Assembly (NCBI GenBank): GCA_002256025.1
Contig: NKIB01000342.1
Coordinates: 1-33,577, forward strand
DNA: 33,577 nt
Source: Asterionella formosa
Taxonomy: Eukaryota
Reading direction: 5' to 3'
Numbering within the stretch: the stretch's first letter is position 1; each line of letters begins with the position of its first letter. This document shows positions 193-31,020 of the stretch, in pieces. Below the pieces are notes generated by a model. It saw only the letters and a list, made by a program, of their open reading frames with translations. It had not been told where the DNA came from and did not search any database. The translations under genes were made by a program, and so were the position numbers.

Positions 193-1573
193 GATATTTT
201 GTTGATTGGGAATGGGCGGCGCGGCGGGGCATTTGTTTCGTTATGAGAAGTGAAGAAAAGAAGGAGTTCTGTTCTATTATTCGTAAACTTAGTCGTGTTT
301 CATAGCTCAACACAGGTCTTTCAGTAATGATGATACTATTATAGCAGTCACAGCACATATTTATCGTATGAACTATCAATTGTTGTTTATTGGTATGTAC
401 CATCTCTACGACGCGGCAAACAATGTGACACTCGTCCACAGGCATCAATAAGGTGGGTTTGAAGGATATAGTCCGAATTCGAATTTATTGATTGAATGAC
501 AATATGTACGTATCTATCATACCAGGTACTCAAGTGTCCGACGGGGTATGTAGAAGTGACAAATTAAATTAAGACACATGATGACGAAGCCATGACGATG
601 AGGGACCCTAACGGGTACAGCCCATTGACTCTTGGAAATGTTATTGTCAAATTAACTAGCATACCGCATCCTTGTTAATGAAGGTGAAGCTATCCTGCCA
701 ATCAGAATATGGCATGGGATAGGTGTACATATCATACTCTGTGTCCATCATAATTAAATTCAAATCTACTGGTAAATCACTCCTGCAGTCATTCGGTTTT
801 TCTGGAAATATTACTCAATTGGATGTGCAGGGTGAGGCACTGACTGGAACGGACGTGCTTCCTCGAAGAAGCCATATTTATCATACCTCGCAGACAAAGG
901 TCTGTTTCACGTAGGTCATCAATGGGTCCTGTTTTCATATCAAGAACAGTACAATGATTGAGCATGTCGCTGGAGCGATGTTCGGGACATTACAACGTCG
1001 GGAACAACCATTCTTTTGTTGCGCACTTACCGGTACGATGTCAACATTCATTACCTGAGCCATTAGATATTGGAAAAGTTCAAAACGAGGCAACTTTACC
1101 GGTAGTATGATGGAACAGCGCTAGTGCTGGGGAAGAGGGGCATACTGCACATAGGTCAGAGACATCAGTCGACAATGACGAGAGATCGAAAGTGCCTGGT
1201 ACTAGGTACTCCTACTTCCAAGCTATTGTCACTCCAACGCTCTAGACTGGTAACTATCTACACTTTACTTGAGTGAATTGTACTCCTGAGAATTAGCAGT
1301 TTTGACACTTAGTAGACAATGGTTTTGACCAGTTTCTACATCAGGCAAATGAAGGACCCGAACTACCGGTATTAGAGCATTCGTTTCATCTGGTCTTGAA
1401 TATCCTTGCATACAGGCACATGCCTGTAGCATCGCTGCACTGGAACAACTTAGCTAAGAGTAGAAAGAACAGCGAAGAGGGAAATGGTTTGCAGTCAAAC
1501 CGAAAATGTAACAAAGGCTGTCGTTTCGCATAGTAGTCCCTCCTATCGTCCTTTCTTCGTCGCGGTAGCAGCA

Positions 1574-3919
1574 TTAGCTAGCATTCTTCTTTGCTGCAAC
1601 ATTAGTTCGCTTTCTTTTCTTGTCGCCGTTCGTTGAGTTCTCCATGGTTGACTTTATCGTAGTGCAATCCAGTCGTTCGTTTGCCTCGCTAGCTGCTGCC
1701 TCGTTCTCATCTTTGCTGTCATTGGAGCTTTCCCCTTCATTGTCGTCGTCTTCGTTGTCACTTGCATCTGAGCTATCATCAGATGACTCGCCATTGGTTT
1801 GCTTTAGAACTATCTCAAAATCTTCCGCATCGTCCACATTCTCCATCTCCTCCTCCTTTAATGCACCAAACATGGCATCGTTCAAGCGTCGGTAGTCTAC
1901 ATTCTGTCGCCGTCGCTTACCATGGATGATATTGGATTCATCTAGTGCACCTGCATCCACACTCGCGGGGACTGGATTGCGTTTAGCTCGCCTACAAGGT
2001 GGGCTAGACCCTGCCGAAAGGGCATCGAGTTCATCTTTTGGAATATTGAGTTCCACACTTGACATATCTTGCGAACTCCCATCATCATCATCATCATCAT
2101 CATCATGTCTCAGTGAAGCACCTTGTGAATTGGATTCATTGGAGTGAAAATCATCGTCGTCCTCGTCGTCACTGTCACTCCCTTCACCCAAGATAGGAGC
2201 ATTGTCCGTTACGCCTTCCACTCCAAAATAGGAAGCCAGATACACCGCTGTCTCACCAGCGACATCGCCTTCCTTCCACTTCATCGCCATTTCATACTCG
2301 TTCTCCGATTCTGGAAAAACATCGCCCACATGATTCCATGAGTGAATTGTATCTGCATCCTCCAAGACCCACTCATCACCTGTGTACTCAGATTGTACAT
2401 TCGCGACTAAATTGGCCATGGTAGTACATAACGGACAAAACCAATCATCGTCGTCTACTTCACTGACCACGGGCTTCAAGCATTGCATATGATACGCTCG
2501 AAAGCATCCCTGTCCATCACACATGAGCACATCATTCTCATCTGTTGCATCTCCCTTGAAACATATGCAGCATTTCAAATCTTCCAAGGAAATCATGTCG
2601 TCATCGACATCGCCACTGTCGGTCTTGGGATCCACTGTTTGTATTAGTGCTGACTTTGGGTTGTTAGTACAATTGTTGCTATGCAATGTAACTTCTAAAG
2701 GAATCATTCCAATGGCATTAGTTGAGGGCTTGTCGAATTTGGGAACCAGTCGTCGTCTCTGAATGTCATCATCCTGTGCTAGTCCCAACGGAAACCAAAA
2801 CTTGATTTCTTCTGTATGTTCCTTCACAAATTGGTACAACGCTGGAAGTGCAACGTGTTCATCTGTCCCTTGAATGTACTTGTTTAGTGACTGAAGCCAT
2901 TGCCTAACCCTTAGTTTGGAAGTTGCCAACTTGACAAAAGTTTGACACAATTCTTGAGAGGAGAGCAACCGTACAATGGTCAATGATTGTTTATTGTTTC
3001 TGGAATTGTTGTATGCTGCCAATGTTGCTTGTGCCAATCGCAATTGCTGCATTTGTTGGGAAATACTCTTAGTAAGGCGTTGTATCGTTGAACCAAAGGC
3101 ATGTAACTTGGCATGTTTGGCACTAAATTCCCAATCCCATTCGTCCTTTGTCATGGCTCGTGGAGTGGCGGCGTTGTTGTTGTTGTTGTTAGTGTCGTCA
3201 CTGTAGTGAGGGTAAATAATATTGTTTGCTTTGGTTGTAGATGATGATGATGATGATGATTGGCATAATAAACAATGCCATTCTCCTCGGGGTATAGTTA
3301 TAAGAGGTACAAAGTGACAACGTTGATGGTACGGTCGGTTGCAAGTATCACAAAAGACAATAGTGTTACTGGCGTCGTACAGTGATTCAGGAAGTAACAG
3401 ATTGGGCAATTTTCCTTGTTTTTTGGGATCGTCTTCCTCTTGTAACAGTGCTTGACGGTCTGATTCAAAAAAGGCGGTTCGATCAGCAAAATCAACGGCA
3501 ACATGACAGAGTACGCAGCAAATAGTTTCGTCATCATCGTCATCGTCCTCCTTTGGCTTGGAACTACCACCGGTTGGTTCTTTCTGTTTCCTTTTCGATT
3601 TTAGCTTGGGACTACCGGTAGGTTCGTTCTGTTTCCTTGTCGATTTCGGCAATGGCTTCACTCCAGTTGCTTTTTTATATTTTCGTGCTACTTCATCTGC
3701 GTTGTCATGTCAAATCGGACGAGTAAAAAGTGAGTGAGTATACTGGTATACCGAATTATAGTCATTTGAAAACCCCCAAAATGGCTCGGTAACTCGTGTT
3801 TCAGCTGCACTGGCGATTCATGAGTCAAATGTGTCCCATGCTGCCAATGCGGAATCCGCAAATTATCGTTTCCTACCTGCTGCTGCTGCTGATTTGGTTC
3901 CTCTCTTTCCTTTGGCCAT
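1574..3919 (-). CDS. Double PHD-finger chromatin protein (HAT3.1/PRH-like, no homeodomain seen); 2 exons, ~721 aa
   Basis: Exons 3919-3877 (MAKGKRGTKSAAAA, then G|GTAGGA) and 3696-1574 (GCAG| acceptor) join in frame as DEVARKYKKATGVKPLP. PHD1: CVLC...FCDTCNRPYHQRC...WHCLLC. PHD2: CCICFKGDATDENDVLMCDGQGCFRAYHMQCLKP...WFCPLC, followed by WNHVGDVFPE, an acidic tract and KRRRQNVDYRRLND, all reminiscent of plant PRH/HAT3.1. Confidence 0.9.
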
Positions 3920-4376
3920 TATTTATCAGATGGAATGATTATTTATGCTGGATATGTCAATATTGAATTGAATTGAATTGAATTGTTTCGTCTTTCTTAG
4001 TTGATGACGAACAAAGCAAAGCCATGGACGAATAAGCAAGGCTAGACTAGGTACCGGTAGTGGTGTATGTAGCAAAGTAAGTGAATTTTTATGTGATGGC
4101 GGACGATGACCACAAAATTTGTTGCTCGCGCCATTCTGTTTCAAGTTCGCGCGGGCCTTTTCGGGTGCATACGTATGTACGTACTGATACTTTCTGACGA
4201 CTGCTGCACGAATCACGTACCATATGTGTATGTAGGAGTATGACTCCGTACCTGGGTAGCCAACATTGCAATAGTGGAACAGTTCCAACAAGAATACACA
4301 CAAAAGGTCCCATTGCACTCGAGTCGAAATTTGCTAGAAGGCATTTTGCACGTTTAGCTTTATTTTACTTTAGCCT

Positions 4377-7300: not shown

Positions 7301-7812
7301 TTTCGACAGGTATAACATTTTCCACAACGGAATCTTCGAAGTTCTTCCAAACTGGATCCAACGCTTCGTTTGGATCGGCCAGTATTATTTTTATTACTAG
7401 CGAAAGTGGAAGTACAACTAGCAGCGGTGGAGGTAGTAGTGGAAGTGGAAGTAGATGTAGTATTGTCTAACTCATTGTGCTTATTGTTGTCCATCTTGCT
7501 GTACCATGTACCGTAGCGAATGCGTTTGGTTGGAGATGCCAATACCTCTACAGTGGCCGTAGTATCATTGGTGGTAGTATCAGTATCAGTAGCAGTAGCA
7601 GTATCATGGATACTAGGACCGCAATGATGTTTGCCGACTTGCATTCTTTCGTTTTGCTGTTCGCCCAATTCCTTCCCTGAGTCCAGTGTAATTACTGGAT
7701 CCTTTGGAAGATGGTGGTCCATTACTCCTACTATCATGCATTGCGCAATGGTCTCATTTTCACCATTGCCATTGTCGTTGTCGTTGGCAGTGGTAACGAT
7801 GCCGGCTTCCAT
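4377..7812 (-). CDS. Multidomain chromatin protein: zf-CXXC, MBD-like, Tudor-like, zf-CXXC, MBD-like, divergent SET-like domain; 4 exons, ~1015 aa
   Basis: Exons 7812-7207, 7074-6553, 6385-6056 and 5966-4377 with three phase-0 GT-AG introns (AAG|GTATGT..CAG|ATT; ACG|GTAAGT..TAG|GTG; AAG|GTAAAG..CAG|ATG). CXXC1 RCGKCYTCRKPDCQACWTC...CLQKIC; CXXC2 RCNKCSLCQSENCGRCETC...CLRKMC; Tudor-like EIGSRVYCRWPKNGNFYWGMI...YTVEFDDGD; MBD-like PQGW...IVSPNGNCYWS and QAGW...LVSPTGRTFGSLEEV; SET-like SGIPNAGYGVF...AYVNE...EIFINYG. Confidence 0.85.
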
Positions 7813-10295
7813 CTTTTGATGTGTCGTATACTATGACCGACAGCAATTTAAAGGGGGCGGAGCCATGCATGATTTGAAGGAGACTGTGCGCTATTATTTT
7901 CGACGACACAGACAGTACGTATTGAGCAATACATACGTGTGCCGTATGGTACCAGGTACATACCGGTACTGGAAGTACAAAGGTCAACATTTCTTATATT
8001 CGTATGTACCAATGCACAGTGAGGGGTCCTGCATGAAAACCTCTCCTGCAGCTCGAACTAGGGTTAAACTAATAATATTGATTCAAAGAAATCAAACAGA
8101 AATTTTCTTCAGTACCGGTAAAACAATACATGTACCAGTATGAATATATCATCACTATCTGCTAATTCTACATACCATTTAACACCCCTTCCATATGCTT
8201 ACCAGTAGATACAGTCATCATTGGTCAAAGTATGAACATAGGTCAACTCTTTCTAATGTCAGGATGTAGGATCATCTAGCGAAAATGTGCCAGAAGGAAC
8301 TTCGGTTCTTTTACAACGCTAAATAACTAGAAATTTCGGGGCCAAACAGTTTCTTTGGCATAGTAAAAAGCCAAAGTTCCATTCTACAGCTTCTCTCCAA
8401 CATATTATAGAATATTGTTAGAATAATCTGTATCGAATTTTTTACCCAAGTTCAAGATCATAGCAGGGGTTTCAGTGCAGGAACCTTAATAAGCACACAA
8501 TAAAATTAAGGAATAAAGCAAAACATTCCTGTTACTCTACATTTTACTTGTTGTCTGCTACCTGCAAGTTGCAGTAAAATTTGCTGAAATGGACAATGTG
8601 TCGCAGGACAGGTGCTCAAAAAGATATCACAACTTGTTTGTGATGTAGGTTTTACAAAAAGTATTTTGTTTAAACGCGAAAACATCACATTGCTGAAAAA
8701 AGAAAATGACAATGACTGGTGCAATAGAGGGTCAACTAGAAGCAAAAGAAAGCAAGTCTTGCTTACTTTGCTTTATTCCCTCCAAAGCAATTCAAAATTG
8801 TTCTCCTTTTGATGCTGAAGTGGCTGATGAAAACAAACAATAATGAATGGTTCTTTATCAATTAGGATTTGAATATTCGCATGCTAGTGTCACCATACTA
8901 TAACTAAAATAACATACCACTGTAGGCATGCTGGCTGGACTCATGCTGCTCAGGGTACTGGTGGTACTACCTGAGGCAGCACACCTAAGCAGCACTGCTT
9001 GTATATAATTTTTTAGCTTCGATGATTTGATTCTTTTGTATTGATTATATATATCCCAGTAAAACTACAGAGTACAGTGCAGTTGTCATGGCTGAGTGGC
9101 TGGAGAATTTATTGTCTCAGCCTTGATTATGACAAAAATAACAAAAATCTCCATGAAAAATGAGAATGACGCTTTGCTATTTGGTACACATATTAAACAT
9201 GATAGAAAAAACATTTATAAAAGAATAGTTGTGATAACATAAATATTGAAAACGAAAATTGAAAAAGCCAGCGGGGGCGCATTTTTTAATGAAATTTGAA
9301 GATCACAATTGAAAATGACCATGTTATGAGCAGATTTGACACTAACACATAGTAGATGTACAACGACTAGTAGCTACAACAACAGCAAAACAATACCATT
9401 ATTGATTAAGAAGCAAAGATGTGAATAGTTATTGACATGACGGTATATATATATATATAGGTTGTGTACCACATGTTTATTGAACCAAGGCCAGGCAAAT
9501 GTCCATTTTCTTTTAGTACATAAGAAGAAACATATGGTAGACGAACACCAGTCAGCACGCGATTTGTTGTACATACTACCATACAATGCCGTTAAAATGT
9601 ATAGACAACACATACCGGTACACCATTATGTGTGTGCCCGGTACTCCGAGGACCAAGGTACCAGGTACCAGTTACGAGGGAACACTCCGATTAGCAGGGA
9701 CGGGGTACCAAGTACCACTCCGGAGTACCAGGTAGCTGCAAGGAACAACGAATTCATTGTTGTTCCAACATAGAAATTTACAAATTGTCAAAATATGAGA
9801 ACAGTTATTACTTTAACTTGAAGTTCACAACGATAAGCATGCACCTCCTATTTTCCGGTGGTGCCGCCTACATAGCAACCGGTAGCTGTTCGAAGGCTGT
9901 GGGGAAGGTGACGTGGAGTCTTTGAGTGAAGTTCTCGTGAGCGAAGCAACCATGATAGTACGTGGTACCAGCATACCATCCGTGATAAAATTTGGCGGTG
10001 CCGTGGCACTTAGCAGTGCCCTGGTACCTGTTACCAGGTACTACTACTCCTAGTAAGGTTCTGAACATCGTGGTACTGCATTCCGCGGACCTCATGTTTC
10101 CATGATTCAATGTGAAAGCATTTGGATATAACTGATCATCGTTTATATACGAGCATCGACAGGTCTTTAGAATCCGCAATGCGAAGGGTGCACAAATGTG
10201 AAACGAACAAGGCAATCTTTCCACCGACAGCGAACCATCTTCACACGAAGCAAGGACAACAAAAAGCCCATACCGACGCATTACAAGAACCAATC

Positions 10296-11531
10296 ATGTC
10301 AGCGTTTTCTGTGACTGCTCCTCGATTCGATCGCCGCGATCTGGCAGCAGAATTCAATGAGCTATCTCCCAGTCAGAAAAAGGCTGCTCAGAGGGATCTA
10401 TACGGCCTTACCAAAGCGATCAAAGAGAATGCCACCATGCAACACGCAGCCCTTCAAGGACTGTCACTAGCACTTGACGAAATACAAGACAAGCATGCCT
10501 TTCTTCAAGCACTTGAGCAATGTCCTCAACATGCTCAGAACGATCAGTTTACGCTATCGTTTCTGAGGGCAGATGCCTTTGACGCCAAACGAGCTTCTAG
10601 TCGACTTGTCCAATACTGGGAAGAAAAGCTCAAACTGTTTGGACCTTTGAAAACGTTTCGGCCACTGACCATCAATGATTTAGAACCGCAAGATCTAGCT
10701 ACCCTCCGTGATGGTGGGTTGCGCATTTTGCCTGGAAAGGATAGTGCTGGTCGAGGACTCTTGTACTGTGATGCAACAAAATGGTCACGAGATAGAGATT
10801 CAATGGTAAGTTGTTGTTGTGTGTGTGTGTGTCGATATGCATCTGGTTCTTGAGCCGAAAACATTAAAGAAACAAAAACCAACAAACTTTGGATAATGCT
10901 ACTTCTTTATTGCTATTAGATACGAATTCTATGGTACGTGGTTCATTCAAATCTTTATGATGAAGAGATCCAGAAAAATGGGCTTGTTATGGTTACGATT
11001 AGCCACGTACAATTCAATCTTCAACATTTTGATCGAAAGCTGGTGAGTCCTTGAGTGCGGAGCTCTATTTTGTCCACTTTGATTACCGGTATTTCCCTCA
11101 TGATGCACACGAGATGCAAAACAAACATGATAGCTTACGCCTCTACATCATTTCAGAACAATCGAATGATGGATCACTGCCGCATGATTTTACCATTCAA
11201 AATCTGTGGAGTTCATCTTTTAATAAAGAGTCACGTCATCGAACTGGCTTTACCATTTCTTTTGCACGCAATGGGCAAGAATCTAAGGGCTCGCTTTCGG
11301 ATTCATGAAGCAGCAGCGGCCAAACAGTGTATGGCCGATCTCAAGGAGTATGGAATATCTTCACAGCAGCTGCCAATTGAGATTGGAGGGACGCTGGACA
11401 GAAACTCTCAGCAACAATGGATCCATAATAGACTATTGCAAGAGGGGCATTCCTCGGTAGGGATCCCCACAAGATCTAGAAGTCCACCAAGACCTGATGC
11501 GATGCAATGTCATCTCTCAAGGGCTGCTTGA
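10296..11531 (+). CDS. CRAL-TRIO/Sec14-like lipid-binding domain protein; 3 exons, ~335 aa
   Basis: Exons 10296-10805 (ATG|GTAAGT), 10920-11042 (TAG| ... CTG|GTGAGT) and 11157-11531 (TTTCAG|), all phase 0. Motifs FLRADAFDAKRASSRLVQYW, GKDSAGRGL, QKNGLVMV, PFKICGVH, LRARFRIH, LKEYGISSQQLPIEIGG. Confidence 0.85.
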
Positions 11532-12410
11532 TGATTAGTGCAAGTTTGATTGATTATTGGTGTGTATTAGAATCCAACATGAATGGCATCTGTGGTGGAA
11601 GTTTGTAATTGTGTCAAGCTCCAGTAGGCGGCATGATAATAAGTGGGAAAAAGATACGTTCTCCGTGCATTTACACGACAGTGAAATAATGCCATATACA
11701 GTATTTTGTAACAACGAATTTCTCACCTATAAGCCATCATCAGCTAGATGCCTTTACGTAGACGCATATCATCTTTGGCATTCCACATAAGAGGGAAATG
11801 AAGCTAAAATTCTCAACGTTAAGGGTGTTGCAGTACAAGTAATACAGTTCCATGTCTTGTTTACTTCAAGCGTCGCGGCCACAAGTACGAGTGACTACCG
11901 GTATGCATGCTGGTATGCTATCAGAAACCCTCCTTCCCAATATGCTACCAGTACTATACAGTACAGTATGGTTGGATGGATGGTGCATGTACGCACAAAC
12001 ATCAGGTGAATTTCCCGGAAGTTGAATGCAAATTATACTTTCTAGTACCGCAGTAGAATTGATTCCGATGGTAAGTTAAATAATGCACCAAAGAATTGAT
12101 GAATTGGAATTTGCTTTCGATGTTGCTCCGGAGAAACGCCAGCAACAAGAGTTTGTTGTCATGTTTGGGCAGATACATAGTACAACAAACACTTGCTTAA
12201 AAATAGGCAAATAGGAGCGGGCTAGGTAAGATGAATGATGAAGCCTGATAGTATAATATAGCATAGATTTATTATTACTTCCCCTTAAATTTACTATTTA
12301 GCAAGTATTCTTACATCTTCAATGACACAGCAATCCAAATTCAATCCCACTACCGGTATTGTGGTCCAATAAATCAAGGATCTGACCAACCTAGTCCAAA
12401 CCACGGATGA

Positions 12411-13193: not shown

Positions 13194-14124
13194 CGTCGTC
13201 TCCTGCTGGAATATTAGTAAGAATCCAAATCCTCAGCCGTGTGCTCCATAAAGAAGAAGTGCAGACAGAGTATATTTTGTTACCCCTGCTAGACTAGATT
13301 CAATAAATAGATTGAATGCTCAACAAAAGTTTTAACAAGAAGTTATTGCAACTTCTTCCTTGCTGCTTGTCGTGCGCACGTGTTCTTGTTCTGCTTGCAC
13401 TACATACATACCTACCGGTAGTAGTGCACTACACAGCATACTGTAAGTACTGCCCTGTCTGTGACCCTGCAATGACTGCCCATTGACAACACCTACATAC
13501 TCCTACCCAATTTCCAGCATTGGTGAGAGATCCTGGTTCCAACTGTTGAATCAAAGCAGAAATCATTGTTTCCTGCCTTATGATAATGTTAATGGCCCCA
13601 ACAATAACAAGGAAGTATGCAAGACCCTAATGAAGAAAGAGGTTTTCGAATTCATGTGTTTGGTTCTTGGGAAAATGGGTGAACCACAAACACAACCCCA
13701 ACAAAGGACCTGAGCTCCATGGGGATATTGCTTGGTGTTGATGGATCATCATCCCATACTAATCAATTCTGTGTATGGTGTGCATGTCACAGGGAGCAGA
13801 GGACTGTCAAGGTATTTGTCAGATCAAAATGATGGCCAATGTAGCTAACTAACAGCAACTTGTAGCAGTCAATTAGAAATTTAGCCTTGTTTTCCTAGTT
13901 GTAAGAACCGTCTTTGCAGCAACTTTCGACTGTATACCTGATAGTATATATCAATGTGTGCCTTTGACTATATGCAATTAAGGGTAGCCAGAATCTTGCT
14001 TGAAAGCATTGCAGGCAGAGCTTTGCATTACAACCAGCTCTATTTTAACCTACTAGTACAGCACCAGCTAAGAGTACTACTACATGAATTTGATAACCTC
14101 AAGTTTGCGTCTATTTTGCAGGTA

Positions 14125-15339: not shown

Positions 15340-16603
15340 GTAGGCAATAGATTGTGCGTGCCCTGTACAACCTATCCTTCGTTGCTGAGACTGGGTCGCT
15401 TGCTCCTGTATTTCCAAAGAACATTAATGATTGCTGTTTTGTAACTTCTTTTGAGATACGTTCTCACCTACACGTTTACTAGTTCTTTTTGTTCCCTTGT
15501 TCGACATGGTCACAACGAAGTAGGAGTAGAATAAATGTAGATGTTTCAAAATCAAAGCTTGAAACAAAATTAATAAAATATCTACCAGTGCATTACTTTC
15601 ATTTTTGGCGCACCAACAATAAAAGTTAGTTGTATTAGGTCTTCAAGAATTTATTAATGGATCATTCATTTACGTTTTGTACTTCAAAGATGTAATCCGA
15701 GTACATAACGAGTGATATAGTACTAGTGATAATATGTTCGATCATGATCAAATACCTATCTATATTGATCATTCATTCCAATATCTTGAATAGCAGTGAC
15801 GTACTGTACTACTTTTCATATCATGCAATTACCAGTATACTTCGAAGACTTGTACCGGTAGGTACCAATGATACTTACTATTTCGTAACGGGGATGCGAT
15901 TACAAACAAGTCCTTTCGAGGTTCTTCCAAGTCTTGAAAGGTTTATCTAATCAATCATACTTGTTGTAGGATATTGAATGTTCCTTTGAAAAATAGATTT
16001 TAGACATTCATAGTTGTAAATGATAAATTGGAAATTACCTCTATTTCACACACCTGTATATGAAAGTGCTTGTGCACAGAAGTTATTACAATATCCTCTT
16101 GTTGGTGCTTTGTGTGTAAGAAAAGCGCTTGTGATCATAAACTGAGTGATTGTTTTGTTGCATCTACTACTATGTGGAGTTGGTTTACTCATTGCAACAC
16201 TTTATTTATCGTTGTTCTTATCTCCTACAAAAAAAAGATACAAGAAGGGTAGAATGCGATTTTGCTGTCATTCGTAATGGTGGAATTTTGAATGTTAGAC
16301 TACATCAACAATTTCGCTGACAATCATTTCATCTTTCAGAAAACATGTCGAAATAGTAAATGAAACATGAGAAAGCAAATGATTTAAACAAACATCATTG
16401 CTGGAACTGGAGTGAAAGGAATTAATACAAATATGTGCTTATTCTGTTAAAGAATTTACAGTGGGATGAATGGGGTGACCAGAAGCATAAAAATACGGAT
16501 TGTATTATTAAATAGTGATGCATCGGTTTAACTCGATTTGTGTTTGTTATTGATCGAACATGATAATTTGTTTGACCAATTATTCAGATGTCGAAGAGAG
16601 GCT

Positions 16604-22482: not shown

Positions 22483-23875
22483 GAGCGATGTTGGCGCTAT
22501 CACAAGACGTACTGATGTGTCGTCGTTTACGAAGGGATTGGTGACTGAAGCGATGGGTTTGTTCGAATGCCGAGCGTTATCAAAACCAAGGGCGTGACAC
22601 GGCTTTCAACCTGCTGGTGAGCGTACAGGAGTACCGGTAGATCGGTCGGCAGTCCACACGATGCAACCAGTGCGTAATATTTATTAGTTGCATCGATTAT
22701 TCAAATTTATCCCATTTCAACTCGTACGATTTTCTCCGGCTCAATTGCCCTACATAATGTGAGGTTACATAGCTCTAAGCTACGGATCGATGAATAATAT
22801 ATATGCATGTACCGGTAGTAAATTTCAAATCGGCAACTACCGGTAATACGTATCGAAAAAACAGTTATTCTATTCACGTTACTGTAAAACCCGGTGTCTT
22901 GTACCCCTCAATGTACACAGCCATGATTATAACACACCGGCCGGGCCTTTTTTGATCGCCAAACATTATGAAGAAACCAACTTCACCACCGTTTTCTCCA
23001 TAGTCAAAAACATAAATAACAACATTCAAAGAGATATTGTTTTAGGTTTGGTTTCTTGGATCAATCACATTTCGATTTTTGGTGCACTGGCTGGCGTGCC
23101 CGAATTTTGTAATGGCTGCAATAGTAATTTCTATGGTGTGTAAACTTTTGTACCTACTTCTATACTAGTAATAATTTGTGTAGCGTCTACAGTATTAATC
23201 TTGATAGAAATTGATGCTAACCAACCAAATCATTTTTTCGGTATCATAAAGTATGACAACCAAGAAATATCTCTGCATCAGGCAGAAGAAAAATATTGTT
23301 ATGGAAGGATAAAGCAAGCCCAACAATATCAAGGCAACTGCCAGAGCATATTCGGTTCAGCCAAAGCAGATCCAAGTTGTATAGTCTAGTACTACACCCA
23401 TTAATACTGTTGTAGGATTAGGTAAAAAAGAGGACACATTCTAGGAATTAGTATACTGGTAGATGCCATCACGAAACTCGGGCGTGAACTGGTGACAACA
23501 ACATATCTTTTAATGTTGCTATTTACGTTTTAGACTACGGAGAATGCGGTGGTGAAGTTGGTTTTTCATAATGTTGGTTGATCAAAAAAGGACCAATGTC
23601 TTGTACTCCCGCCCTCTAAGTGAAATCAGTCGTAGCTGTGTACATTGAGGGGTACCAGTACGAGACACCAGGTTTTATGGTGCATGAATCCCACGAGAAG
23701 ACAAGCAAACCAACAACCGCATCCTTGTGACAACAAATCGCTACTGACGTTGACAATGAACACATTTCGCTTCAGACTGGGCATGATGGACGATGATCGG
23801 CATGGTGAAACACGTGAATTGCTGGAGTCACTTTTCAGGCAAGGTACAAAAACCAGGTGAATACTAGAAATAATT

Positions 23876-23937
23876 TAATCAAATCTGTGGAGTGTATCAT
23901 AAAATACTAATCAAATCTGTAGAGTGTATCATAAAAT
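23876..23937. repeat. 32-bp tandem duplication
   Basis: TAATCAAATCTGT.GAGTGTATCATAAAAT at 23876 and 23908. Confidence 0.9.
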
Positions 23938-24376
23938 GGTTTTCTTAAGTAGACCCCTTGCCGATTTTGGCAATCCCAGGGCAAGAAACCAAGGGGCAAT
24001 TGGCGTAAATTGTATTGCCGAAATGCGAATATAGGAAATATACAGCGAATATAGGAAATATGCAAAATATATTTATATGATAGGCTATAGCAAGCTAAAA
24101 TTGACATTTACACTCGATGAGTGGGCAGTAGGTAAGCGAATGGCGCGACAATAGCTAGTTTGTGAAGTGCCTCAACAATACCCTTCTCGGTGGCTACATG
24201 CCTTCTCGTACACATGTGTACTCGGCTGGGATTGCACTCGTAGGGTGACCTTCTGGCAGTGCTGGGGGCGCCACTTGTACAGTCAACCTACTTGCGCTGC
24301 CCAGCCTGCTCGAACCCACCATGTACCAGTATACTCGCAGGCATCAGACCACCTTGGGCGTGTATTGCCTTTATCA

Positions 24377-24535
24377 AGCAGCAATGGCACTGCCAATACA
24401 ATGTCAGCGACGATGAAAAAGAAGCATTCACGTCACGTAATTTTTGGTACCAGTAGCTACATATCCATATCACTTCAAATATTATTTTAACAATTCTACC
24501 ACAATGATTATCATTTCAGATTGTCACACCATGTT
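24377..24535 (+). repeat. ~158-bp dispersed direct repeat, copy 1 (copy 2 at 25617-25772)
   Basis: Shared blocks AGCAGCAA.GGCAC, GAAAAAGAA.CATT, CACGTCACGTAATTTTTGGTACCAGTA, TAACAATTCTACCAC, ATTGTCACAC.ATGTT. Confidence 0.9.
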
Positions 24536-25477
24536 AAAGTATTACTTTTATTGGACAGATCTATATCCTTAGACAAAGAAGACTATAGATAGTGACATTC
24601 ATTTCTCTTTTGTTTCTATATTCTTGTTTTGAATTTACTAAACTGGTATAGGTTGTTCGGTTTGAACAAACAAACGAGCAATTCAACAAGTGCTGTTTGC
24701 ATTTCTAGAAACATACAATCATAGATAAACCCATGTCTATCTCACACTTACTGACCATAGGTTTATAACCATTGATCATTCATTTCAAACTATTGCTCTT
24801 CCGAAATAGCTTATCGACCAGCTCATTATGGCCGGAGTAACAAGAACGTTGAACATGTGGTTCTTGATGAGAGCTTGGTACATCAAAGTTGACTCATTTG
24901 ACTTTGAGTCATAACTACGTACTAGATGAGCTCACTTTGACAATAGTATAGTGTTGTTATCATTTTCTATGGAGAAATTTTCGTTATTTTCGACATGGTC
25001 AAGCAGGCGGAGATGGCATGATGCAGGATTCTCCAGCCGCGCACAAGAACTACTCAAGCATTTCTGGGAAGACAATAGCAAACCGAAATACTGGTACGTA
25101 TGGTTCAGCGATGAGGTTGCACATTATTGTTCCTGTTTGCGACTGCTTCAAACATTCCAAGAACGACCACCAGTAGTCTACCAGGTACCCGTCGTAGACT
25201 GTTATCCTTGCGTTGAGGTTCGTTGCTTACCGGTAGTAACAGTGCAATGATTTATACTAGCTTCATTTTCTTCATGGTACGAGAACCGTGTATCATCGCG
25301 CCTTCTTCCTCGTTTGTGTGGGTACCAGAGGGTACCTGGTACCAGCGTATGTAGCAGGTACCTACTCCATCTGGTTGAAAACAATTGTGTCATACACCCC
25401 AGGTATTTTGTACCAGGACCAACTCTTGTCTTTGGACCACCTCCATGATGCCGGCCAGCCAACTCAAGGCCCATCAG

Positions 25478-25961
25478 ACGTCAACTACCGGTAACAGTAA
25501 TGCTTCTCCAGGTACATGGTGCCGTACAAGTCTGGTTCTGGTGTTCAGTGGGAGTACTAACCATGTACCTTGTACTGGTACCCGACCTGGTACCAGGTAA
25601 CTAGGTAAACCGAGCCAGCAGCAACGGCACACCACCAATACGTCAGTCACGAAGAAAAAGAACCATTGCGCACGTCACGTAATTTTTGGTACCAGTACTT
25701 ATAGTAGAAATATATAATTTATCGGTAACAATTCTACCACCGCAATTACCATTTGAATTGTCACACAATGTTGTCAGATAATTTTTAAAAGCATCACGTC
25801 ACTATCTGCCGACTGCCGTCGCTCGCGTCGGATTGCTCTAATTCGGCATCATTGACGCTTCACCGGCAGGCACCTCTTCTTCGAATTGCTGTCCAGTATT
25901 AAAATCGGGTGTTGCTCATTCAGTTCATCAGATCAGATCAAAACCTTTGAAAATTACGTCA
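25478..25961. promoter_or_regulatory. Cluster of five ACGTCA (TGACGT, aureo-box/bZIP-type) sites upstream of the plastid-targeted gene
   Basis: ACGTCA at 25478, 25640, 25672, 25796 and 25956, all in the same orientation and within ~570 bp of ATG 26042. The regulatory function is inferred. Confidence 0.5.
25617..25772 (+). repeat. ~156-bp dispersed direct repeat, copy 2
   Basis: Colinear match to 24377-24535. Confidence 0.9.
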
Positions 25962-26041
25962 GTTGTTGCTTCCGTAAAGCAGATCTGATCAGATCAAGAT
26001 TGCTGATCGCAGATCGCTGATCGCTGCAACCCTCGTGACGA

Positions 26042-27839
26042 ATGAAACTCTTTGCCATCTTCGCGACTCTACTTCTCCGGTACAATCTATCAAATGGATT
26101 CGATATGCGCTCTTGGAGCGCTTCCAAAGACTCCATTCCAGCGGCCATTGGGAACACGGCGCTTCAAAAAGTTCAGCAACTCGCAGGGCAGGTTGCCCAA
26201 CGGAGGAAGCGAGGCGAAGCTCCGCAGCCTGTGACTCCGCTCTACCGAGAGGAAATACTGGAGCATAACGCAGGTGACAATGATAGGCTGATGGGAGCAG
26301 GAGGAAACGTCATGACGACGTCGGTTGATCCTGATCAGAAGCAAGTTTGGGCGGCTTTGGCCAACTTGGAACGAGACAGTTGAGTACATTTCTGTCTCTT
26401 GACTAAGTGCAATTTTGTTTGTGTTTTCCACCTGTTTCTTCTGACTTACCCTCATCCACACTCCACTAGTGCAACTGCTAGACAAGCTCACTGGACAAAA
26501 AGCACAACTATCCCCGCTTGAACTCACTTTGTTGATTGGATCTGTACTGGCAGCTGCAACAGGACCCCTAGTCTTGAACGGAGAAATAAAGGAATTCGTT
26601 GCGCCTGCTGCCGCGGCCTGTAAGTAAAATATTGACGGAAAAATAGGCACTATACTTTACCGCATCACATAGTTAACAGTGCATTCTCAACATACCTACA
26701 CAACAGTCTCTGCGGCGATTGGGATTGGCGCGGAATACGCGGGAAAAGTGGCTGTCGCCGACGGAAAAGAAGTTGCCGCACAATCTATTCAATGCGCGGC
26801 AGAATCTGAAGGCTTCCTTGCACAGGCAGAACGAGCAAAGGCAGTGACACCGCTTTGTGTTGGGATTGGAGCGACGGCACTGAGCTTTGCGCTCCTGGTA
26901 CCAGTATTGTTAGCAAGCTTAGCAGTTGAGAAGAACTTGCAGCTTGTGACAGAAGTATATTTATGCTGCCCTCTTGTTGCAGTTCTTTCCGCAGCCGTGT
27001 CTTCTTTGGCATTACAAGAGACAAGATCGTTTTCACAGCAAGCCATTTCGGTGGGTAACAGAAGATTTGCTAAGTCGGGATTGGTCGGACGAACCTGGTT
27101 GTCATCGACAGAACAGATTGAACGAAAAAGCAAAAACGCGGCGCATAAGTGGAAGACATTTGCCTTTTCCGTCCTACCAGCCCCAATATTGGGAGCACTA
27201 GTTCCGGGAGCGTTACCAACGAAAACTATTGTCGTCTCAGCCTTGGCAGCAGCACAGAGTGCATGGTTCTTGGCACAATGCGAACATACCTTATCGCGAG
27301 CCACCGACGCCGTGGCACTAAAAGCCAGATCGGCAGCAGTTTGTGACACTTACGCGAATCAAGGAGCGAGAGCGGCTGCCATCTTGCCATTCACATCAGC
27401 CCTAAGTTCTCTGTGTGCTGCAGCAACAGCTGCCATTGTGGAGTTTCCCTTTATGGAGGAGGTCGCCCTGAAAGGAGGCGTGATTCCCGAAATGTTAATT
27501 GTAGGTCTCTTCCCAACATTTTCTGCCATGTTCGCCGCTGCAGCCTCTGTCAGTAAGGCAAGATGTGAAGTTGACGCCGAAGCGGCAATGCAGGCAGCGT
27601 CGACGCTGGCCCTGGGATACGATGCTGTTGGAGAAGACGACCCCGTTTTGAGACCGCTTCGAGGCGTAATGGATCTGATCAAATTGACTGCTCAATCGTC
27701 GGTCTTGGAACCTCTCAAGAGACGAGTGAAGAATTCTTGGTTTTTGAAGTCGAGTGCTAAGCTTTTATTGTGGTTTCGATATAGAATATTGAATCAACGG
27801 CGACCGCAATCAACTGAGTTGGTGTTGCGAACAACGTAA
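26042..27839 (+). CDS. Predicted plastid-targeted, Ala-rich multi-pass membrane protein of unknown function; 3 exons, ~539 aa
   Basis: Exons 26042-26378 (GACA|GT), 26470-26619 (CTAG| ... T|GTAAGT) and 26707-27839 (ACAG|) total 1620 nt in frame (..LERDMQLLDKL.. and ..APAAAAFSAAIGIG..). Signal peptide MKLFAIFATLLLRYNLSNG followed by F, resembling the ASAFAP cleavage rule; several hydrophobic helices. Confidence 0.85.
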
Positions 27840-28010
27840 CAGTAACATTGCAAATATGTTCTTCTGTCTAGCCTTTTTTACGCTTGCCTTGCACTATGTA
27901 CGAAGAATTCAACAGAGTTGGTGTTGCGAACAACGTAACAGTAACATTGCAAATATGTTATTCTATCTACCCTCTCTTAAGCTTGCCCTGCACTATGTAT
28001 GAAGTATTCA
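27810..28010. repeat. 99-bp tandem duplication of the last codons, stop and 3'UTR
   Basis: TCAAC.GAGTTGGTGTTGCGAACAACGTAACAGTAACATTGCAAATATGTT... at 27810 and 27909. Confidence 0.95.
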
Positions 28011-29021
28011 TTTGCGGTTTAACGTGGTGCAAACAGTTGCCATCACGAAACGACATGTGATGCACCTTAAGTTTGCCAAATATAGAGCAATGCATCAAAT
28101 GACAATGCCCCTAAGGAAGTGATCATTTTTGACGTCGAATTATTCTAGCGATTTGCCAGAAAAAACTTGAGTGTTAAATAATAAAACCCTTTATGAAGGA
28201 GATACCTTTGACTTCCTAATTTTGGGTCATCAACAGTTCAAACCAGAGTTTGTCTTTATCCGCAGTTCTTTTGCCAGCAGTTCTGACGATAAGTACCATT
28301 ATGAGAACGGTGATGAAGCAGCAGGCCCGCTGGTCCTCTCTGGAATAGCTTTGAGCAACCCACACTTTGGGCTATGTTTTTTCTTGTCCAGCATGCAAAG
28401 GGCATGGTTTCTGGTAAATCTACCATTTTGCTACCATGTACGCTATATCATATGCATTTACAATAAAGAAAGGAAATCTTTCAAGTATAGTTCGCCTCAA
28501 GTTGAAACAACATCAGGCGATAGTTTCACAGACTGTAGCAAAGGTATTATGTTATGTACCTCCAAGCTAGAACAACGAGAACTCCACGAAGTCTAAATAA
28601 TTTTGAAATTTAACAAATAAATAACCTGAAAGAGAAATGTGTATCCTCGTCTGTGGCTACATTGTATGAATACAATTTACCAGTATTGGGGTGGTATCAA
28701 CACACTATCCGCACTGACTACAGAAAAACACTTTGTTCCATGCAAGTTGACAAATATAAACTTCAGATATTTGCTCTCCTGAAACAAGTCACTTCGATGT
28801 GATATATGCGGAAACAAGGAGTTAAACGGTGGTGATGAATATTCCTTGTATCCCTTTCTAGTCCACACCTTGAGATGCTTGAAATCAATTGCAATGAGCT
28901 CTGTTGTTGTAGTTTTTAGTATGTTATTAACAATAATGTTACAGGTGAAAGAATGGGCGTCTCTTTGCTCAACGTCACAATCGAATCTTTCCTCTACAAT
29001 GGCAATTCTGACTTTTTTGAT

Positions 29022-29612
29022 TTAGGATCTGAGCTCGTCGATAGAGATTTTCTTTTTTCGTAGAATGCCAACTAACAATGGCTTTGTGCTATTTTCACCG
29101 ACAGGCTGGTGCTGCTGGTCGGTCCCTTCCAGTTGTCCAAGAGCATCGATATCGTCCACCGTCAGACAGAGCAGGTACTGACGCGCGGATCTTCGACGAA
29201 GATTAAGTGCTGCTGCAAACGTAACTCTTTTTGTTCCAGCAAGTCTAAAATCTGAATGTAACGAAGAACACGATGCGGCCACGTCCAGCACAGGTTCATC
29301 ATGATCACATGTCAAAGGTTCAAGACGTTTCGTTAGCGCGATAGGAAATTGATGTGCAGATACGGGGGAAGACCTTGAATGACTTGGTCGTTGAGTTCCA
29401 GCCATCTGATTGTGTGCTAACTTTAGCTCGTCACGTAGTTGCTGAATCAGTGAGGGTTGCTTGTGGTTGTGCTTGACTGGCCAGTTGGAACTGTGGATGG
29501 TACATCCTTGATCATTCCACAGCTTGTTATCGTTGTCTTTTCCCTTGGAACTGGAGAGCGAGGTGAGACCAATAATAGGTTTGCTGTATTCTGGAAGCAG
29601 CAAGTGGTGCAT
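29022..29612 (-). CDS. Hypothetical protein, 196 aa, with KRVTF and GILRK motifs
   Basis: ATG ORF, largely disordered composition, with RVxF-like TKRVTF and SILK/GILK-like GILRKKK. No homology evidence. Confidence 0.5.
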   Translation of the reverse strand: MHHLLLPEYSKPIIGLTSLSSSKGKDNDNKLWNDQGCTIHSSNWPVKHNHKQPSLIQQLRDELKLAHNQMAGTQRPSHSRSSPVSAHQFPIALTKRLEPLTCDHDEPVLDVAASCSSLHSDFRLAGTKRVTFAAALNLRRRSARQYLLCLTVDDIDALGQLEGTDQQHQPVGENSTKPLLVGILRKKKISIDELRS

Positions 29613-30648
29613 TGTTTTGGCTCGACAACTAAGGCAGCGCTATTGTTTGCAAATGGCGATGGTTTTGGCAGAGAGGATCGTTGATGTCTGTTCTGATTAA
29701 ATGAGATGATTCCCATACCGGTGAGAGCAAGATTGTGATTGATAGGAGGCACTAGAAGCTACAGTCCGGAAGTAACTTTTTTGCATTTTATCGCAAAGTG
29801 AAAGAAGCAGTGAAAAGTGCTTCTAGCGGCATCAATACATGATCATGAGCTGTTGGAAAAGGTCTTGGGAAAGTACCGTTTGCAGTAGAAAGGCCCAACA
29901 AGAATACGAAAGCATAAGACAGGACACGTCGAAATTCTACTGTGGAGGATGAGTCGGTTGAGATCATCAAAGATTTAGATTTCGAACTGGCACTCCTTGT
30001 ACATGAACCCAACATGTCACACTCTTAATAGGCCACATCACTCCTTGAATGTCTACATACGCATGCTCAACTTTCGGGAGGAAATGACCCTTTGCAAATA
30101 TGCTAAGCGGTATACTGGTCCCGTTTTAAAAACGGGTTCCCAAAATATAGAGGTAACATGTTCGGAGGTTCTATATAGCTACCAGATTCAAAGACCGCGT
30201 CAAAACGAGGGATCTCTTCTCATGTGCCGTGCACATGATGCATTATCAGAGTGGTGGTGGTTAAACTACCGGTAAGAAAAGGCCCACTGGACGATTTCTG
30301 AACAATTTACTGCATTGATACTGGTAGGGCCTGATATTGCATTGGGTATATGGTGTCCAGAGAATAATAGGGATACAGTACAAATACCGCGCCCACGGAC
30401 GATTTCATCAGGGATCTCTTCTCAGGTGAGCGCAGTACATAGCTGATATTTTGTATCTAACATTAAATGAATCGTTCGAGCAAACAAAGGTTTCAATATT
30501 TAGATGCTATGAGAACTACGTGGAGCATCAGTCAAAGTAAAAAAGCAAGATTGTGGGGCCATTAATGACCCATGATGACTGGTTAAAGGCGACATGTGTT
30601 GTCCCGCTCAGCATTCTGGAAATTCTAATGATTCAAGCAGATACATTT

Positions 30649-30730
30649 GTCTCATCATTGAAATACAAATCGTGAAACTAAAAGGATGGGTCTCATCATT
30701 GAAATAAAAATCGTGAAACTAAAAGAATGG
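30649..30730. repeat. 41-bp tandem duplication
   Basis: GTCTCATCATTGAAATA.AAATCGTGAAACTAAAAG.ATGG at 30649 and 30690. Confidence 0.95.
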
Positions 30731-31020
30731 ATGACTCATCGGCGCCTAATTCTGTTGGTCATCAGCCAGGTTCCCAGTTCTTTCGAGCTCCCCGGAAGTT
30801 TGAAATACCCCTTTCTTTTACCCTTGCTGCCTTCACAGCTCACGAGAAGCCTGGTACCTGGTACCAGCCAGCATATTCCCTGTTTGCTCGAAAATTGATA
30901 TAAATTGATTGAAATCAGCACTTAGTATAATTTACTGGACCTTCCAGCACTCAGACAACAAAAAGAAAACAGCTGGCCGGATTCAACGTTATACATCTAA
31001 GCTTTTTCGAATTTTTGTCT

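Follow-up and report, generated by a model that had tools for sequence, protein, structure and literature searches.

Why should one eight-letter palindrome, TACCGGTA, recur throughout a stretch of nuclear DNA of the freshwater diatom Asterionella formosa? In the 33,577-nt window, the whole stretch of DNA that was analysed, the word occurs 19 times, compared with a mean of 0.15 and a maximum of 1 in 100 dinucleotide shuffles, none of which reaches 19. It ranks first among the 35,396 distinct 8-mers counted on both strands, above all microsatellite words, and the window contains 24 ACCGGT sites, 19 of them TACCGGTA itself and 5 elsewhere. A preliminary description had given every coordinate of the 19 copies correctly, and its observation as a whole is confirmed. 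It had also proposed that the enrichment should be judged against Markov models of order 4–5. When trained on the entire window, such models predict 0.79 copies at order 3, 4.19 at order 4 (P = 1e-7), 14.1 at order 5 (P = 0.12) and 17.5 at order 6, so that the excess formally disappears at order 5. This loss at orders 5–6 is circular, because the model learns from the copies themselves; once the 19 copies are masked out of the counts used for training, the expectation is 0.37, 0.66 and 0.45 at orders 4, 5 and 6, respectively. At 19 sites for an expectation of 0.15–0.8, the excess is both extreme and robust. An origin of all copies from one repeat family is refuted, because the sequences surrounding them are unrelated, and no repeat family spans the copies. 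A cytosine directly precedes TACC in 16 of the 38 half-sites (P = 0.002); in our reading, a binding site should carry weaker information of this kind in the half-site flanks.

The one-letter variants of TACCGGTA are very unequally represented. The two words produced by a transition at the CpG, referred to here as decayed copies, account for 17 sites, and the remaining 22 variants together for 6. In addition, the window contains nine copies of a 9-mer, TACCWGGTA, all at exactly the positions first described for them (shuffle mean 0.19, maximum 2; 0 of 100 shuffles reach 9). On the plus strand seven of these read TACCAGGTA and two TACCTGGTA, with C or G at the centre in none of the nine. The 9-mers are placed in short 7-bp arrays, (GGTACCW)n, and the earlier claim that copies chain via GGTACC is borne out for six of nine 9-mers but for just one of the 19 8-mers. 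The members of the family are distributed as follows:

520..528: 9-mer TACCAGGTA, 75 bp upstream of the ATG (445) of a minus-strand ORF.
1028..1371: intact 8-mers at 1028, 1097 and 1364, in a spacer that is upstream of ORF 59-448 (minus strand) and downstream of the PHD gene stop at 1574; decayed copy at 767.
3613..3620: intact copy inside a PHD-finger gene (long ORF 1574-3709, minus strand), no other intact copy lying in a long ORF.
4052..4059: intact copy, probably intronic, flanked by ORF pieces of a large minus-strand CXXC/PHD gene; listed with it, a decayed copy at 3741.
7950..8207: cluster upstream of a minus-strand gene (ATG 7812), with a 9-mer at 7950, intact 8-mers at 7961 and 8113 and decayed copies at 8133 and 8200, lying 129-379 bp outside the outermost RNA-contig base (7821).
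9613..10040: cluster upstream of a plus-strand gene whose ATG is at 10179 and whose RNA contigs extend left to 10111, with an intact 8-mer at 9613, 9-mers at 9659, 9726 and 10032, and 7-bp (AGGTACC)n arrays at 9656-9679 and 10020-10041.
11084..11091: intact copy in a GT..AG intron (11042-11155); RNA contigs of 3/3 runs join 11041 to 11156.
11896..11953: intact copy at 11896 and decayed copy at 11946, between two convergent genes; a variant (11897 A>G) in the X10 and X7 contigs turns the former into TGCCGGTA, so that this copy is destroyed in contigs from another population.
12351..12358: intact copy in the 3'UTR of a minus-strand gene (12411-13193), within RNA contigs 12281-13236 and 12326-13313.
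13413..13420: intact copy upstream of a minus-strand gene, 220 bp from its ATG (13193) and ~90 bp outside the outermost RNA-contig bases of two studies (13313, 13329).
15830..15860: decayed copy at 15830 and intact copy at 15853, the sole family members in an AT-rich, ORF-poor 4.5-kb block (14000-18499).
22632..22845: intact copies at 22632, 22810 and 22838, 150-356 bp upstream of a sulfotransferase ATG (22482, minus strand).
23454..24455: decayed copies at 23454, 23653, 24324 and 24448 and no intact copy, in a foldback/repeat block (22884-25000); the copy at 23653 makes up the 6 bp by which the two foldback arms differ.
25089..25697: densest cluster, upstream of a plus-strand gene whose RNA contigs start at 25803 and 25813 (two studies), with intact 8-mers at 25228 and 25486, 9-mers at 25179, 25333 and 25591, decayed copies at 25089, 25573 and 25690, and eight GGTACC.
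26899..26906: decayed copy TACCAGTA within a long ORF (26673-27839).
28678 and 33569: isolated decayed copies.
30267..30863: intact copy at 30267, decayed copy at 30319 and 9-mer at 30855 (within a CCTGGTA x2.3 array), between divergent ORFs 29022-29612 (minus strand) and 31295-31687 (plus strand).

Coding DNA, which makes up 34.7% of the window, is avoided by intact copies (1/19, P = 0.003), decayed copies (1/17, P = 0.007) and 9-mers (0/9, P = 0.02), in agreement with the statement that only one copy, that at 3613, falls in a CDS; the intronic position ascribed to the copy at 11084 also holds. The promoter classes were drawn after the sites had been seen and are defined by ORF orientation, with RNA contigs covering part of the window; as so defined, promoter-class DNA (7,277 bp, 21.7% of the window) contains 13 of the 19 intact copies, 1.79 per kb versus 0.32 per kb in the remaining 12,424 bp of non-coding sequence (P = 0.001), a 5.5-fold higher density upstream of genes. 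All nine 9-mers are also found there (P = 1e-4). An unbiased comparison of words between promoter-class and other non-coding DNA places GGTAC/GTACC at the top (62 versus 32, P = 1e-8) together with GGTACC (16 versus 4 sites), and after masking of the 8- and 9-mers the enrichment is 3.8-fold for GGTACC and 2.8-fold for GTACCA. TATATA is enriched in promoter-class DNA too, serving as a positive control for the classes. At four genes the copies are 79-624 bp outside the outermost RNA-contig bases. The six intact copies outside promoter-class DNA lie in a long ORF, an intron, a 3'UTR, a convergent spacer, a large gene and the ORF-poor block, respectively. Family sites reach 7-10 per kb in three promoters versus 0.44 per kb in the ORF-poor block, and no family member is found upstream of the ankyrin gene (18500-19249) or in the convergent spacer 20716-21546.

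Intact copies are biased toward promoters and decayed ones are not: the ratio of intact to decayed copies is 13:7 in promoter-class DNA and 4:9 outside it (odds ratio 4.2, P = 0.08), and the mobile-DNA block contains four decayed copies and no intact one. With 19 CG versus 17 TG/CA sites, the CG form is retained far above the background prediction. Methylation of the CpG probably plays a part in this decay, since the sole common variants are the two CpG-transition products. Such a sharp variant profile is unusual for a binding site and looks like that of a word that is “born perfect, then decays”.

The same 8-mer is found in oomycetes. In the available text of PMC3597505 and its supplementary file 1 (row 97), TACCGGTA appears as M94, a “high-confidence” predicted promoter motif of Phytophthora infestans, beside M93, TACATGTA; it is tied to particular stages and gene classes, being over-represented in two of six sets (P = 0.0078 and 0.00012) and linked to elicitin, PcF and RXLR promoters. 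According to the available part of PMC10031896, it also matches GTACCGGTA (Seidl motif 9) and ATACCGGTAT upstream of 206 Plasmopara genes. The accessible account of PsMyb37, a single-repeat Myb-related protein of Phytophthora sojae, reports binding to TACATGTA by yeast one-hybrid and by gel shift (PMC11134190). Neither the available text of the cited papers nor a search for the string in PMC11267843, a binding-array survey, yields a protein that binds TACCGGTA itself. The window contains no Myb gene, which is uninformative. In 24 non-redundant loci of other diatoms (127.6 kb), the top over-represented TAC-NN-GTA words are TACATGTA (11 versus 1.1 expected) and TACCGGTA (5 versus 1.0), and just 12 of the 35 sites of this word family lie in long ORFs, which represent 74% of the sequence (P = 1e-6), so that long ORFs are avoided in these loci as well. 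The family is thus present in other diatoms, but TACCGGTA occurs in just 2 of 31 loci from other diatoms (5 copies in 165 kb), so its abundance is lineage-specific.

The rank of TACCGGTA as the commonest 8-mer and its position mostly just upstream of genes make it most likely that a gene-regulating protein docks on the word; we regard it as rather probable that the palindrome is a promoter element bound by protein and present at unusual density in this lineage. The DNA-binding protein, abundant and sequence-specific, would occupy the word at the promoters of many genes, presumably as a homodimer contacting the two TACC/GGTA half-sites, and TACCWGGTA, the (GGTACCW)n arrays and GGTACC would be alternative arrangements of one half-site. 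Sites at promoters would be kept intact by selection, while those elsewhere and in mobile DNA would erode, chiefly by C-to-T change at the central CpG. The diatom word would be the counterpart of oomycete M94 and of M93 / AM-20 (TACATGTA) and, by this analogy, the binding factor may be a single-repeat Myb-related protein, like that of Phytophthora sojae. The preliminary interpretation is thus upheld in part: of the three mechanisms it offered, binding of an abundant protein fits best, given the upstream density and the oomycete word, but as a promoter element, not a generic architectural site, and an origin by methylation or repair bias finds no support.

An architectural, boundary or nucleosome-excluding factor, marking gene borders generally without control of particular genes, is an unlikely identity for the bound protein. 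The very high density upstream of genes, with several copies per spacer, and the top rank of the word among 8-mers would suit it, as would the loose spacing to RNA-contig ends, the unrelated functions of the genes carrying the word and the copies in the 3'UTR, in the intron and between convergent genes; the two spacers devoid of family members and the ties of the oomycete word to particular stages and gene classes argue against it.

Still less likely, and weaker than a promoter element as an account, is an origin of the copies by excision of a TA-targeting Tc1/mariner-type cut-and-paste transposon with ends CC...GG, each visit leaving TA + CC + GG + TA as a footprint that then decays neutrally, with promoters hit most as open chromatin. 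Both TACCGGTA and TACATGTA have exactly the form TA-NN-NN-TA, and according to the available text of PMC3520976 the excision of Tc1 in C. elegans leaves TACATGTA as a rare footprint. The sharp variant profile, the lineage-specific abundance and a TA-flanked foldback/MITE-like element in the window also favour this origin, as do two independent 6-bp indels (TA versus TACTGGTA), one between the arms of the foldback and the other between haplotypes L017 and L018 of another diatom, which are 99.77% identical. However, the window contains no element with TA|CC...GG|TA ends, the sole 12/12 inward match of a TACC...GGTA pair being inside the foldback arms and not at their ends, and no transposase domain in its 68 + 10 scanned ORFs. 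Partial footprints are not enriched (TACCTA/TAGGTA 16 versus 13-15 expected; TACCGTA 4 versus 2.7; TACCATGGTA 0). At both indels the direct repeat exceeds TA (GTAC..GTAC; TGGTA..TGGTA), as in slippage deletion, which accounts for them equally well, and both have the TG form, unexpected of a fresh CC/GG footprint in a haplotype 99.8% identical to its partner. Nor would footprints explain the promoter bias shown by intact but not by decayed copies, or that of the 9-mers and of GGTACC; in the accessible part of their paper Seidl et al. considered this reading of TACATGTA and rejected it because the word is conserved (PMC3520976).

Weaker again, and very improbable, is a HIP1-like mutational process in which a CCGG/CCWGG cytosine methyltransferase and biased mismatch repair build the word without any protein reader: it could draw on the CCGG within TACCGGTA, the CCWGG within the 9-mer with its constant A/T centre, the CpG hot spot and a CpG observed/expected of 0.77 in the window versus 0.96 in the pooled other-diatom loci, but deamination of methylated CpG destroys the word and cannot build it, a repair bias able to build it should suppress the TG/CA products, which are as common as the intact word (17 versus 19), a genome-wide bias should also affect coding and ORF-poor DNA, where the word is scarce, the process accounts neither for the flanking TA..TA nor for the preference for C/G outside the 8-mer, and the 9-mers are accounted for by the 7-bp arrays.

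Among known systems, the sites of the yeast general regulatory factors Reb1, Abf1 and Rap1 are short and highly specific, occur in a large share of yeast promoters, often in divergent spacers, and are bound by Myb-type or similar factors; the diatom copies are likewise short, specific and mostly upstream of genes, with an unrelated sequence. HIP1 of cyanobacteria occurs in coding and non-coding DNA alike, unlike TACCGGTA, which is found in eukaryotic nuclear DNA, avoids coding sequence and clusters at promoters. Both are 8-bp palindromes with a methylatable core and the top word of their length (HIP1, GCGATCGC, is linked to orphan methyltransferases in the available text of PMC4390886), so that the label “eukaryotic HIP-like” describes the frequency and not the mechanism. 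The closest likeness is to the oomycete palindromes M94 and M93 / motif-1 / AM-20 of Phytophthora and Plasmopara (PMC3597505, PMC3520976, PMC10031896, PMC11134190). Oomycetes and diatoms are distantly related stramenopiles, and M94 is identical to the diatom 8-mer: an abundant palindrome of non-coding DNA, over-represented in the first ~1 kb upstream of genes. The density in diatom promoter-class DNA is, however, 8-60 times that given for P. infestans promoters in the available data (0.03-0.22 per kb), the CG-centred word dominates in A. formosa with TACATGTA at background (1 site), the reverse of Phytophthora, and the half-site is further arranged with a spacing of +1, giving the 9-mer, and in 7-bp arrays, unlike in M94/M93. 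A predicted promoter signal already described in oomycetes thus reaches an unusual density in this diatom lineage.

The palindrome TACCGGTA heads the unbiased ranking of over-represented 8-mers in the window, with 38 both-strand counts against 1.6 expected under an order-3 model (z = 29), and among the 35,396 distinct 8-mers it has the highest count as well, microsatellite words ranking below it. An exact word search of the whole window recovered 19 copies of it and nine of the 9-mer TACCWGGTA, all at the positions reported in the preliminary description; the means over 100 dinucleotide-preserving shuffles are 0.15 and 0.19, respectively. That description had proposed that loss of the enrichment under a Markov background of fourth to fifth order would refute it. 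The enrichment is kept at order 4 (19 sites observed, 4.2 expected, P = 1e-7) and formally disappears at orders 5 and 6, where models trained with the copies included predict 14.1 and 17.5 sites. This loss is circular, because 19 of the 24 ACCGGT sites in the window are TACCGGTA itself, so that the model learned the motif; when the 19 copies were masked from training, the expectation was 0.37, 0.66 and 0.45 sites at orders 4, 5 and 6, which restores the enrichment. Nor do the copies belong to a single repeat family, the other possibility raised at that time: the flanks of all 28 8-mers and 9-mers are unrelated, and no repeat family covers them. An interspersed repeat or MITE family was rejected on the same flanks, the only direct repeats that cover copies being short 7-bp arrays, and a structured RNA or tRNA was discarded with 0 Rfam matches and 0 tRNAs.

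The word comprises two half-sites, TACC and GGTA, which are adjacent at 19 sites and separated by a single base, always A or T, at nine, while gaps of 2 to 15 are found at 0–3 sites each in the window (about 0.7 expected). The 9-mers belong to short arrays with a 7-bp unit, (GGTACCW)n, located at 9656, 10020 and 30850, and to a similar run at 25328. Flanking GG or CC is present at six of the nine 9-mers and at one of the 19 8-mers, so the chaining via GGTACC noticed earlier holds for most of the former and for only one of the latter. Of the 38 half-sites, 16 have a C before TACC (P = 0.002). A GTAC-core (SBP-type) site was rejected, as GTACCGGTAC has 0 occurrences and only 8 of the 38 have a G there. 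Among the one-letter neighbours of TACCGGTA, TACCAGTA occurs at 11 sites and TACTGGTA at six, and the remaining 22 variants total six. These two, hereafter the decayed copies, are what a C-to-T transition in the central CpG yields on one strand or the other; the observed/expected ratio of CpG in the window is 0.77. Only the CG and TG/CA centres of TAC-NN-GTA are enriched in the window, and a general degeneracy of this frame in the genome was rejected, with TACATGTA at one site and TACTAGTA at two. A second over-represented palindrome, TAGCTA, has 16 sites in the window against about 5 expected (order 3, z = 6.5).

The long ORFs of the window contain PHD fingers, CXXC-like fingers, ankyrin repeats and a family-2 sulfotransferase, whose named relatives are diatom proteins (Fistulifera, Seminavis, Fragilaria, Amphora) at about 42–46% identity, and GT..AG introns are seen in RNA contigs. 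The tested 10-kb stretch, 19000–28999, is at least partly present in 20 of the 24 sequencing runs listed, from 13 studies. Seven runs contain half or more of the words sampled from it, two of them labelled freshwater metagenome and one algae metagenome, and several with smaller shares are labelled freshwater or lake-water. From the diatom relatives, the introns and the freshwater-labelled runs, the window is therefore nuclear DNA of a diatom, and DNA of this diatom recurs in freshwater samples. Pfam was run on 68 of the 106 ORFs of at least 75 codons and on a separate set of 10; the 38 ORFs outside the 68 for the most part overlap long ORFs in antisense or lie within them, and some long ORFs are among the 10. 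Among these 68 + 10 window ORFs, Pfam detected no transposase, Myb or DNA methyltransferase. Genes and repeats of the window include:

1574–7821, minus strand, putative large multi-exon chromatin-reader gene (PHD fingers, 52.6 bits)
15182–15339, young non-coding tandem repeat (54 bp, 2.9 copies, 100% identical)
19272–20580, ankyrin-repeat gene (12.4 tandem copies of a 105-bp, 35-residue unit)
22884–23670, foldback/MITE-like element (arms of about 170 bp, 83% alike; TA on both sides; ends AAACCYGGTGTCT)
27810–28010, young non-coding tandem repeat (99 bp, 2.0 copies, 90%)
32367–32968, young non-coding tandem repeat (195 bp, 3.1 copies, 89%)

The minus-strand ORFs at 1574–7821 probably form a single large chromatin-reader gene, whose intron at 7075–7206 is crossed by a 3,045-nt RNA contig. 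It also contains two CXXC-like zinc-finger matches below the Pfam cut-off (23.9 and 19.5 against 26.5 bits). CXXC domains read unmethylated CpG, and the position of such a gene beside a CpG-centred motif is probably a coincidence. In the ankyrin gene, RNA-contig joints omit whole units (19802 to 20414, 20116 to 20414), which probably reflects assembly collapse and not splicing. The foldback element adjoins three motif copies at 22632–22838. Beyond it, at 23675–25008, DNA contigs of sequencing run X7 reach a depth of about 800–900, against 4–8 in most bins, and numerous variant letters. This pattern points to repeated or mobile DNA, the X7 depth not being a copy number, and Pfam found no domain in the ORFs of this stretch. 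A small plus-strand transcript (about 8300–8878) that no long ORF predicted ends in a poly(A) loose end at 8878 in the polyA-selected run X17.

Coding DNA, defined as sense ORFs of at least 150 codons trimmed with RNA-confirmed introns (34.7% of the window), contains one of the 19 intact copies, as had been noted earlier, one of the 17 decayed copies and none of the nine 9-mers. The non-coding DNA was divided into gene-upstream (7,277 bp, 21.7% of the window) and other (12,424 bp) by ORF orientation and, between 7000 and 27000, by RNA-contig extents; the RNA evidence consists of assembled contigs and supports part of the window only. In these classes, which were drawn after the sites had been seen, 13 intact copies are gene-upstream and four lie in other non-coding DNA (1.79 and 0.32 per kb, P = 0.001), and the 9-mers number nine and zero, respectively. 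The decayed copies have no such bias (7 and 9), giving intact-to-decayed ratios of 13:7 upstream and 4:9 elsewhere (odds ratio 4.2, P = 0.08). A blind comparison of words between the two classes returned GGTAC/GTACC (P = 1e-8) and GGTACC (16 against 4 sites) at the top, TATATA also being enriched upstream, which serves as a control for the division. Masking the 8- and 9-mers left a 3–4-fold upstream enrichment of GGTACC and GTACCA. The TACC/GGTA half-site is therefore the shared basis of a single phenomenon that comprises the 8-mer, the 9-mer, the heptamer arrays and GGTACC.

At four genes, sites of this family lie 79–624 bp outside the last base covered by RNA contigs, such contig ends being weak hints of transcription starts. 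The family reaches 7–10 sites per kb in three upstream regions and falls to 0.44 per kb in an AT-rich, ORF-poor block of 4.5 kb at 14000–18499, and the foldback/repeat block at 22884–25000 has 0 intact and 4 decayed copies. RNA depth is 0 or near 0 in bins 14337–18338 in three RNA runs and 0.18–3.9 in bin 25009–25675; these gaps were left unused as evidence, because missing contig cover does not show silence. Three intact copies are placed by RNA contigs:

11084, inside an intron skipped by RNA contigs in 3/3 RNA runs
11896, between two convergent genes, covered by an RNA contig
12351, in a 3′UTR

Contigs of sequencing runs X10 and X7 differ at 11895–11897 by C>A and A>G, so that copy 11896 reads TGCCGGTA there, a natural loss of this non-promoter copy in another population.

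We favour, with moderate confidence, the interpretation that TACCGGTA is a palindromic protein-bound promoter element with two half-sites, unusually dense here, and the diatom counterpart of the predicted oomycete promoter palindromes M94 (TACCGGTA) and M93 (TACATGTA). A protein would read the word as two TACC/GGTA half-sites at promoters; intact copies would be maintained there and would erode elsewhere to the CpG-decay products, and the ratios of 13:7 and 4:9 follow the pattern expected from such maintenance and erosion. The 0:4 ratio in mobile DNA, in small numbers, would fit methylation of such DNA. A footprint at AM-20, another name for TACATGTA, has reportedly been seen by ATAC-seq in P. 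sojae. In Phytophthora infestans, motif M94 is TACCGGTA (PMC3597505); row 97 of supplementary file 1 gives it as a palindrome, with 0.00012 as the lowest over-representation P among six gene sets, 0.03–0.22 hits per kb and three conservation columns reading yes/no/yes (PMC3597505). The Plasmopara motif ATACCGGTAT, upstream of 206 genes, was equated with GTACCGGTA, motif 9 of Seidl et al. (PMC10031896). Seidl et al. described TACATGTA upstream of 12,070 Phytophthora genes, suggested a homodimeric factor, and weighed and rejected a Tc1-footprint origin (PMC3520976). Yeast one-hybrid and gel-shift assays showed binding of TACATGTA by PsMyb37, whose only Myb repeat is of the R3 type, and knocking out PsMyb37 lowers effector gene expression (PMC11134190). 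By analogy with this oomycete sibling, the diatom binder may, tentatively, be Myb-related. Judged by titles and the starts of abstracts, no literature was found that treats TACCGGTA (as ACCGGT or CCGGTA) or TACATGTA as a diatom motif, and TACNNGTA gave a single, unrelated E. coli paper. The accessible text of a P. infestans binding-array survey, whose motifs sit in figures, contains none of the strings (PMC11267843). By word match and placement, the window would hold an oomycete-type promoter palindrome in a diatom, at very high density.

With an alignment of the diatom-expanded sulfotransferase family, 31 metagenome loci of other diatoms (165 kb) were fetched, at protein identities of at most 59%. 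They have five TACCGGTA sites (about 1.2 expected), confined to two loci, L022 and L025, and the density of the window is therefore lineage-specific. As pooled counts over the 31 loci are inflated by near-identical loci, a non-redundant set of 24 loci (127.6 kb) was used, L005, L016, L017, L020, L021, L024 and L031 being dropped. It contains 11 sites of TACATGTA (1.1 expected; five from one low-complexity block of L022), five of TACCGGTA (1.0 expected), eight of TACTAGTA (1.7 expected) and 11 of TACCAGTA/TACTGGTA (3.7 expected), and the remaining TAC-NN-GTA centres are close to expectation. These words, too, avoid long ORFs, which make up 74% of this sequence and contain 12 of their 35 sites (P = 1e-6). 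The dense TAC/GTA-rich block at L022:1500–1640 has two TACCGGTA and four of the five TACATGTA of the locus, both oomycete palindromes being interleaved within 140 bp immediately following the sulfotransferase match. In L017 and L018, the palindromic 8-mers that rank first are CTAGCTAG and AGCTAGCT.

The preliminary description had offered a HIP-like methylation/repair bias, a transposon footprint or an abundant architectural protein; this interpretation is partly supported, in that protein binding is favoured, the HIP-like origin is not supported, and the footprint is unproven. That the bound protein is architectural and not gene-specific appears unlikely. We regard it as quite unlikely that the copies are excision footprints of a Tc1/mariner transposon. 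TA-CC-GG-TA does have the form of TA, a few end bases and TA; the profile of perfect or CpG-decayed copies and nothing else resembles birth as a perfect copy; and two 6-bp indels oppose TA to TACTGGTA, one between the foldback arms (left TCTT------GTACCCC, right TCTCGTACTGGTACCCC) and one between haplotypes L017 and L018, which are 99.77% identical. However, both indels have direct repeats of 4–5 bp (GTAC, TGGTA), and slippage deletion is therefore favoured; both also carry the TG form, unexpected of a fresh CC/GG footprint. In the window, moreover, no TACC...GGTA pair reveals a terminal inverted repeat, partial footprints are not in excess, and the scanned ORFs lack a transposase by Pfam. A HIP1-like methylation or repair process is very unlikely to have produced the word, since it would be expected to place the word in coding and ORF-poor DNA too, and its own deamination products would not match the word in frequency. 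Finally, it would be a long shot that the copies arose when a TA-targeting mobile element, or some related insertion process, added 6 bp at TA dinucleotides, and that a Myb-type factor later adopted them as binding sites. In that scenario, transposon footprints would have seeded a promoter code common to diatoms and oomycetes, and the central CpG would be a methylation-sensitive off-switch, eroding where the site is unused.

Few diatom cis-regulatory words turned up in the literature, and TACCGGTA is visible by eye; it is identical to a predicted oomycete motif with a sibling, TACATGTA, whose Myb-related binder is known. If TACCGGTA is indeed a bound promoter element, it would point to a promoter code older than the diatom/oomycete split, the search for the diatom factor would be directly testable via oomycete Myb orthologues, and the word would provide a compact, portable element for diatom promoter engineering. 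Its central CpG, which shows clear marks of CpG-specific decay outside promoters, may serve as a simple read-out of where the lineage methylates DNA.

Cyanobacterial HIP1 is spread across coding and non-coding DNA alike. TACCGGTA resembles it as an 8-bp palindrome that is the top word, far above compositional expectation (19 against at most 0.66 with masked training), and differs in avoiding coding DNA, where one of 19 copies lies although this class makes up 34.7% of the window (P = 0.003). With M94, the window shares the identical 8-bp palindrome, in 19 exact copies, and its over-representation within about 1 kb upstream of genes (13 of 19 in 21.7% of the window, in classes drawn post hoc).
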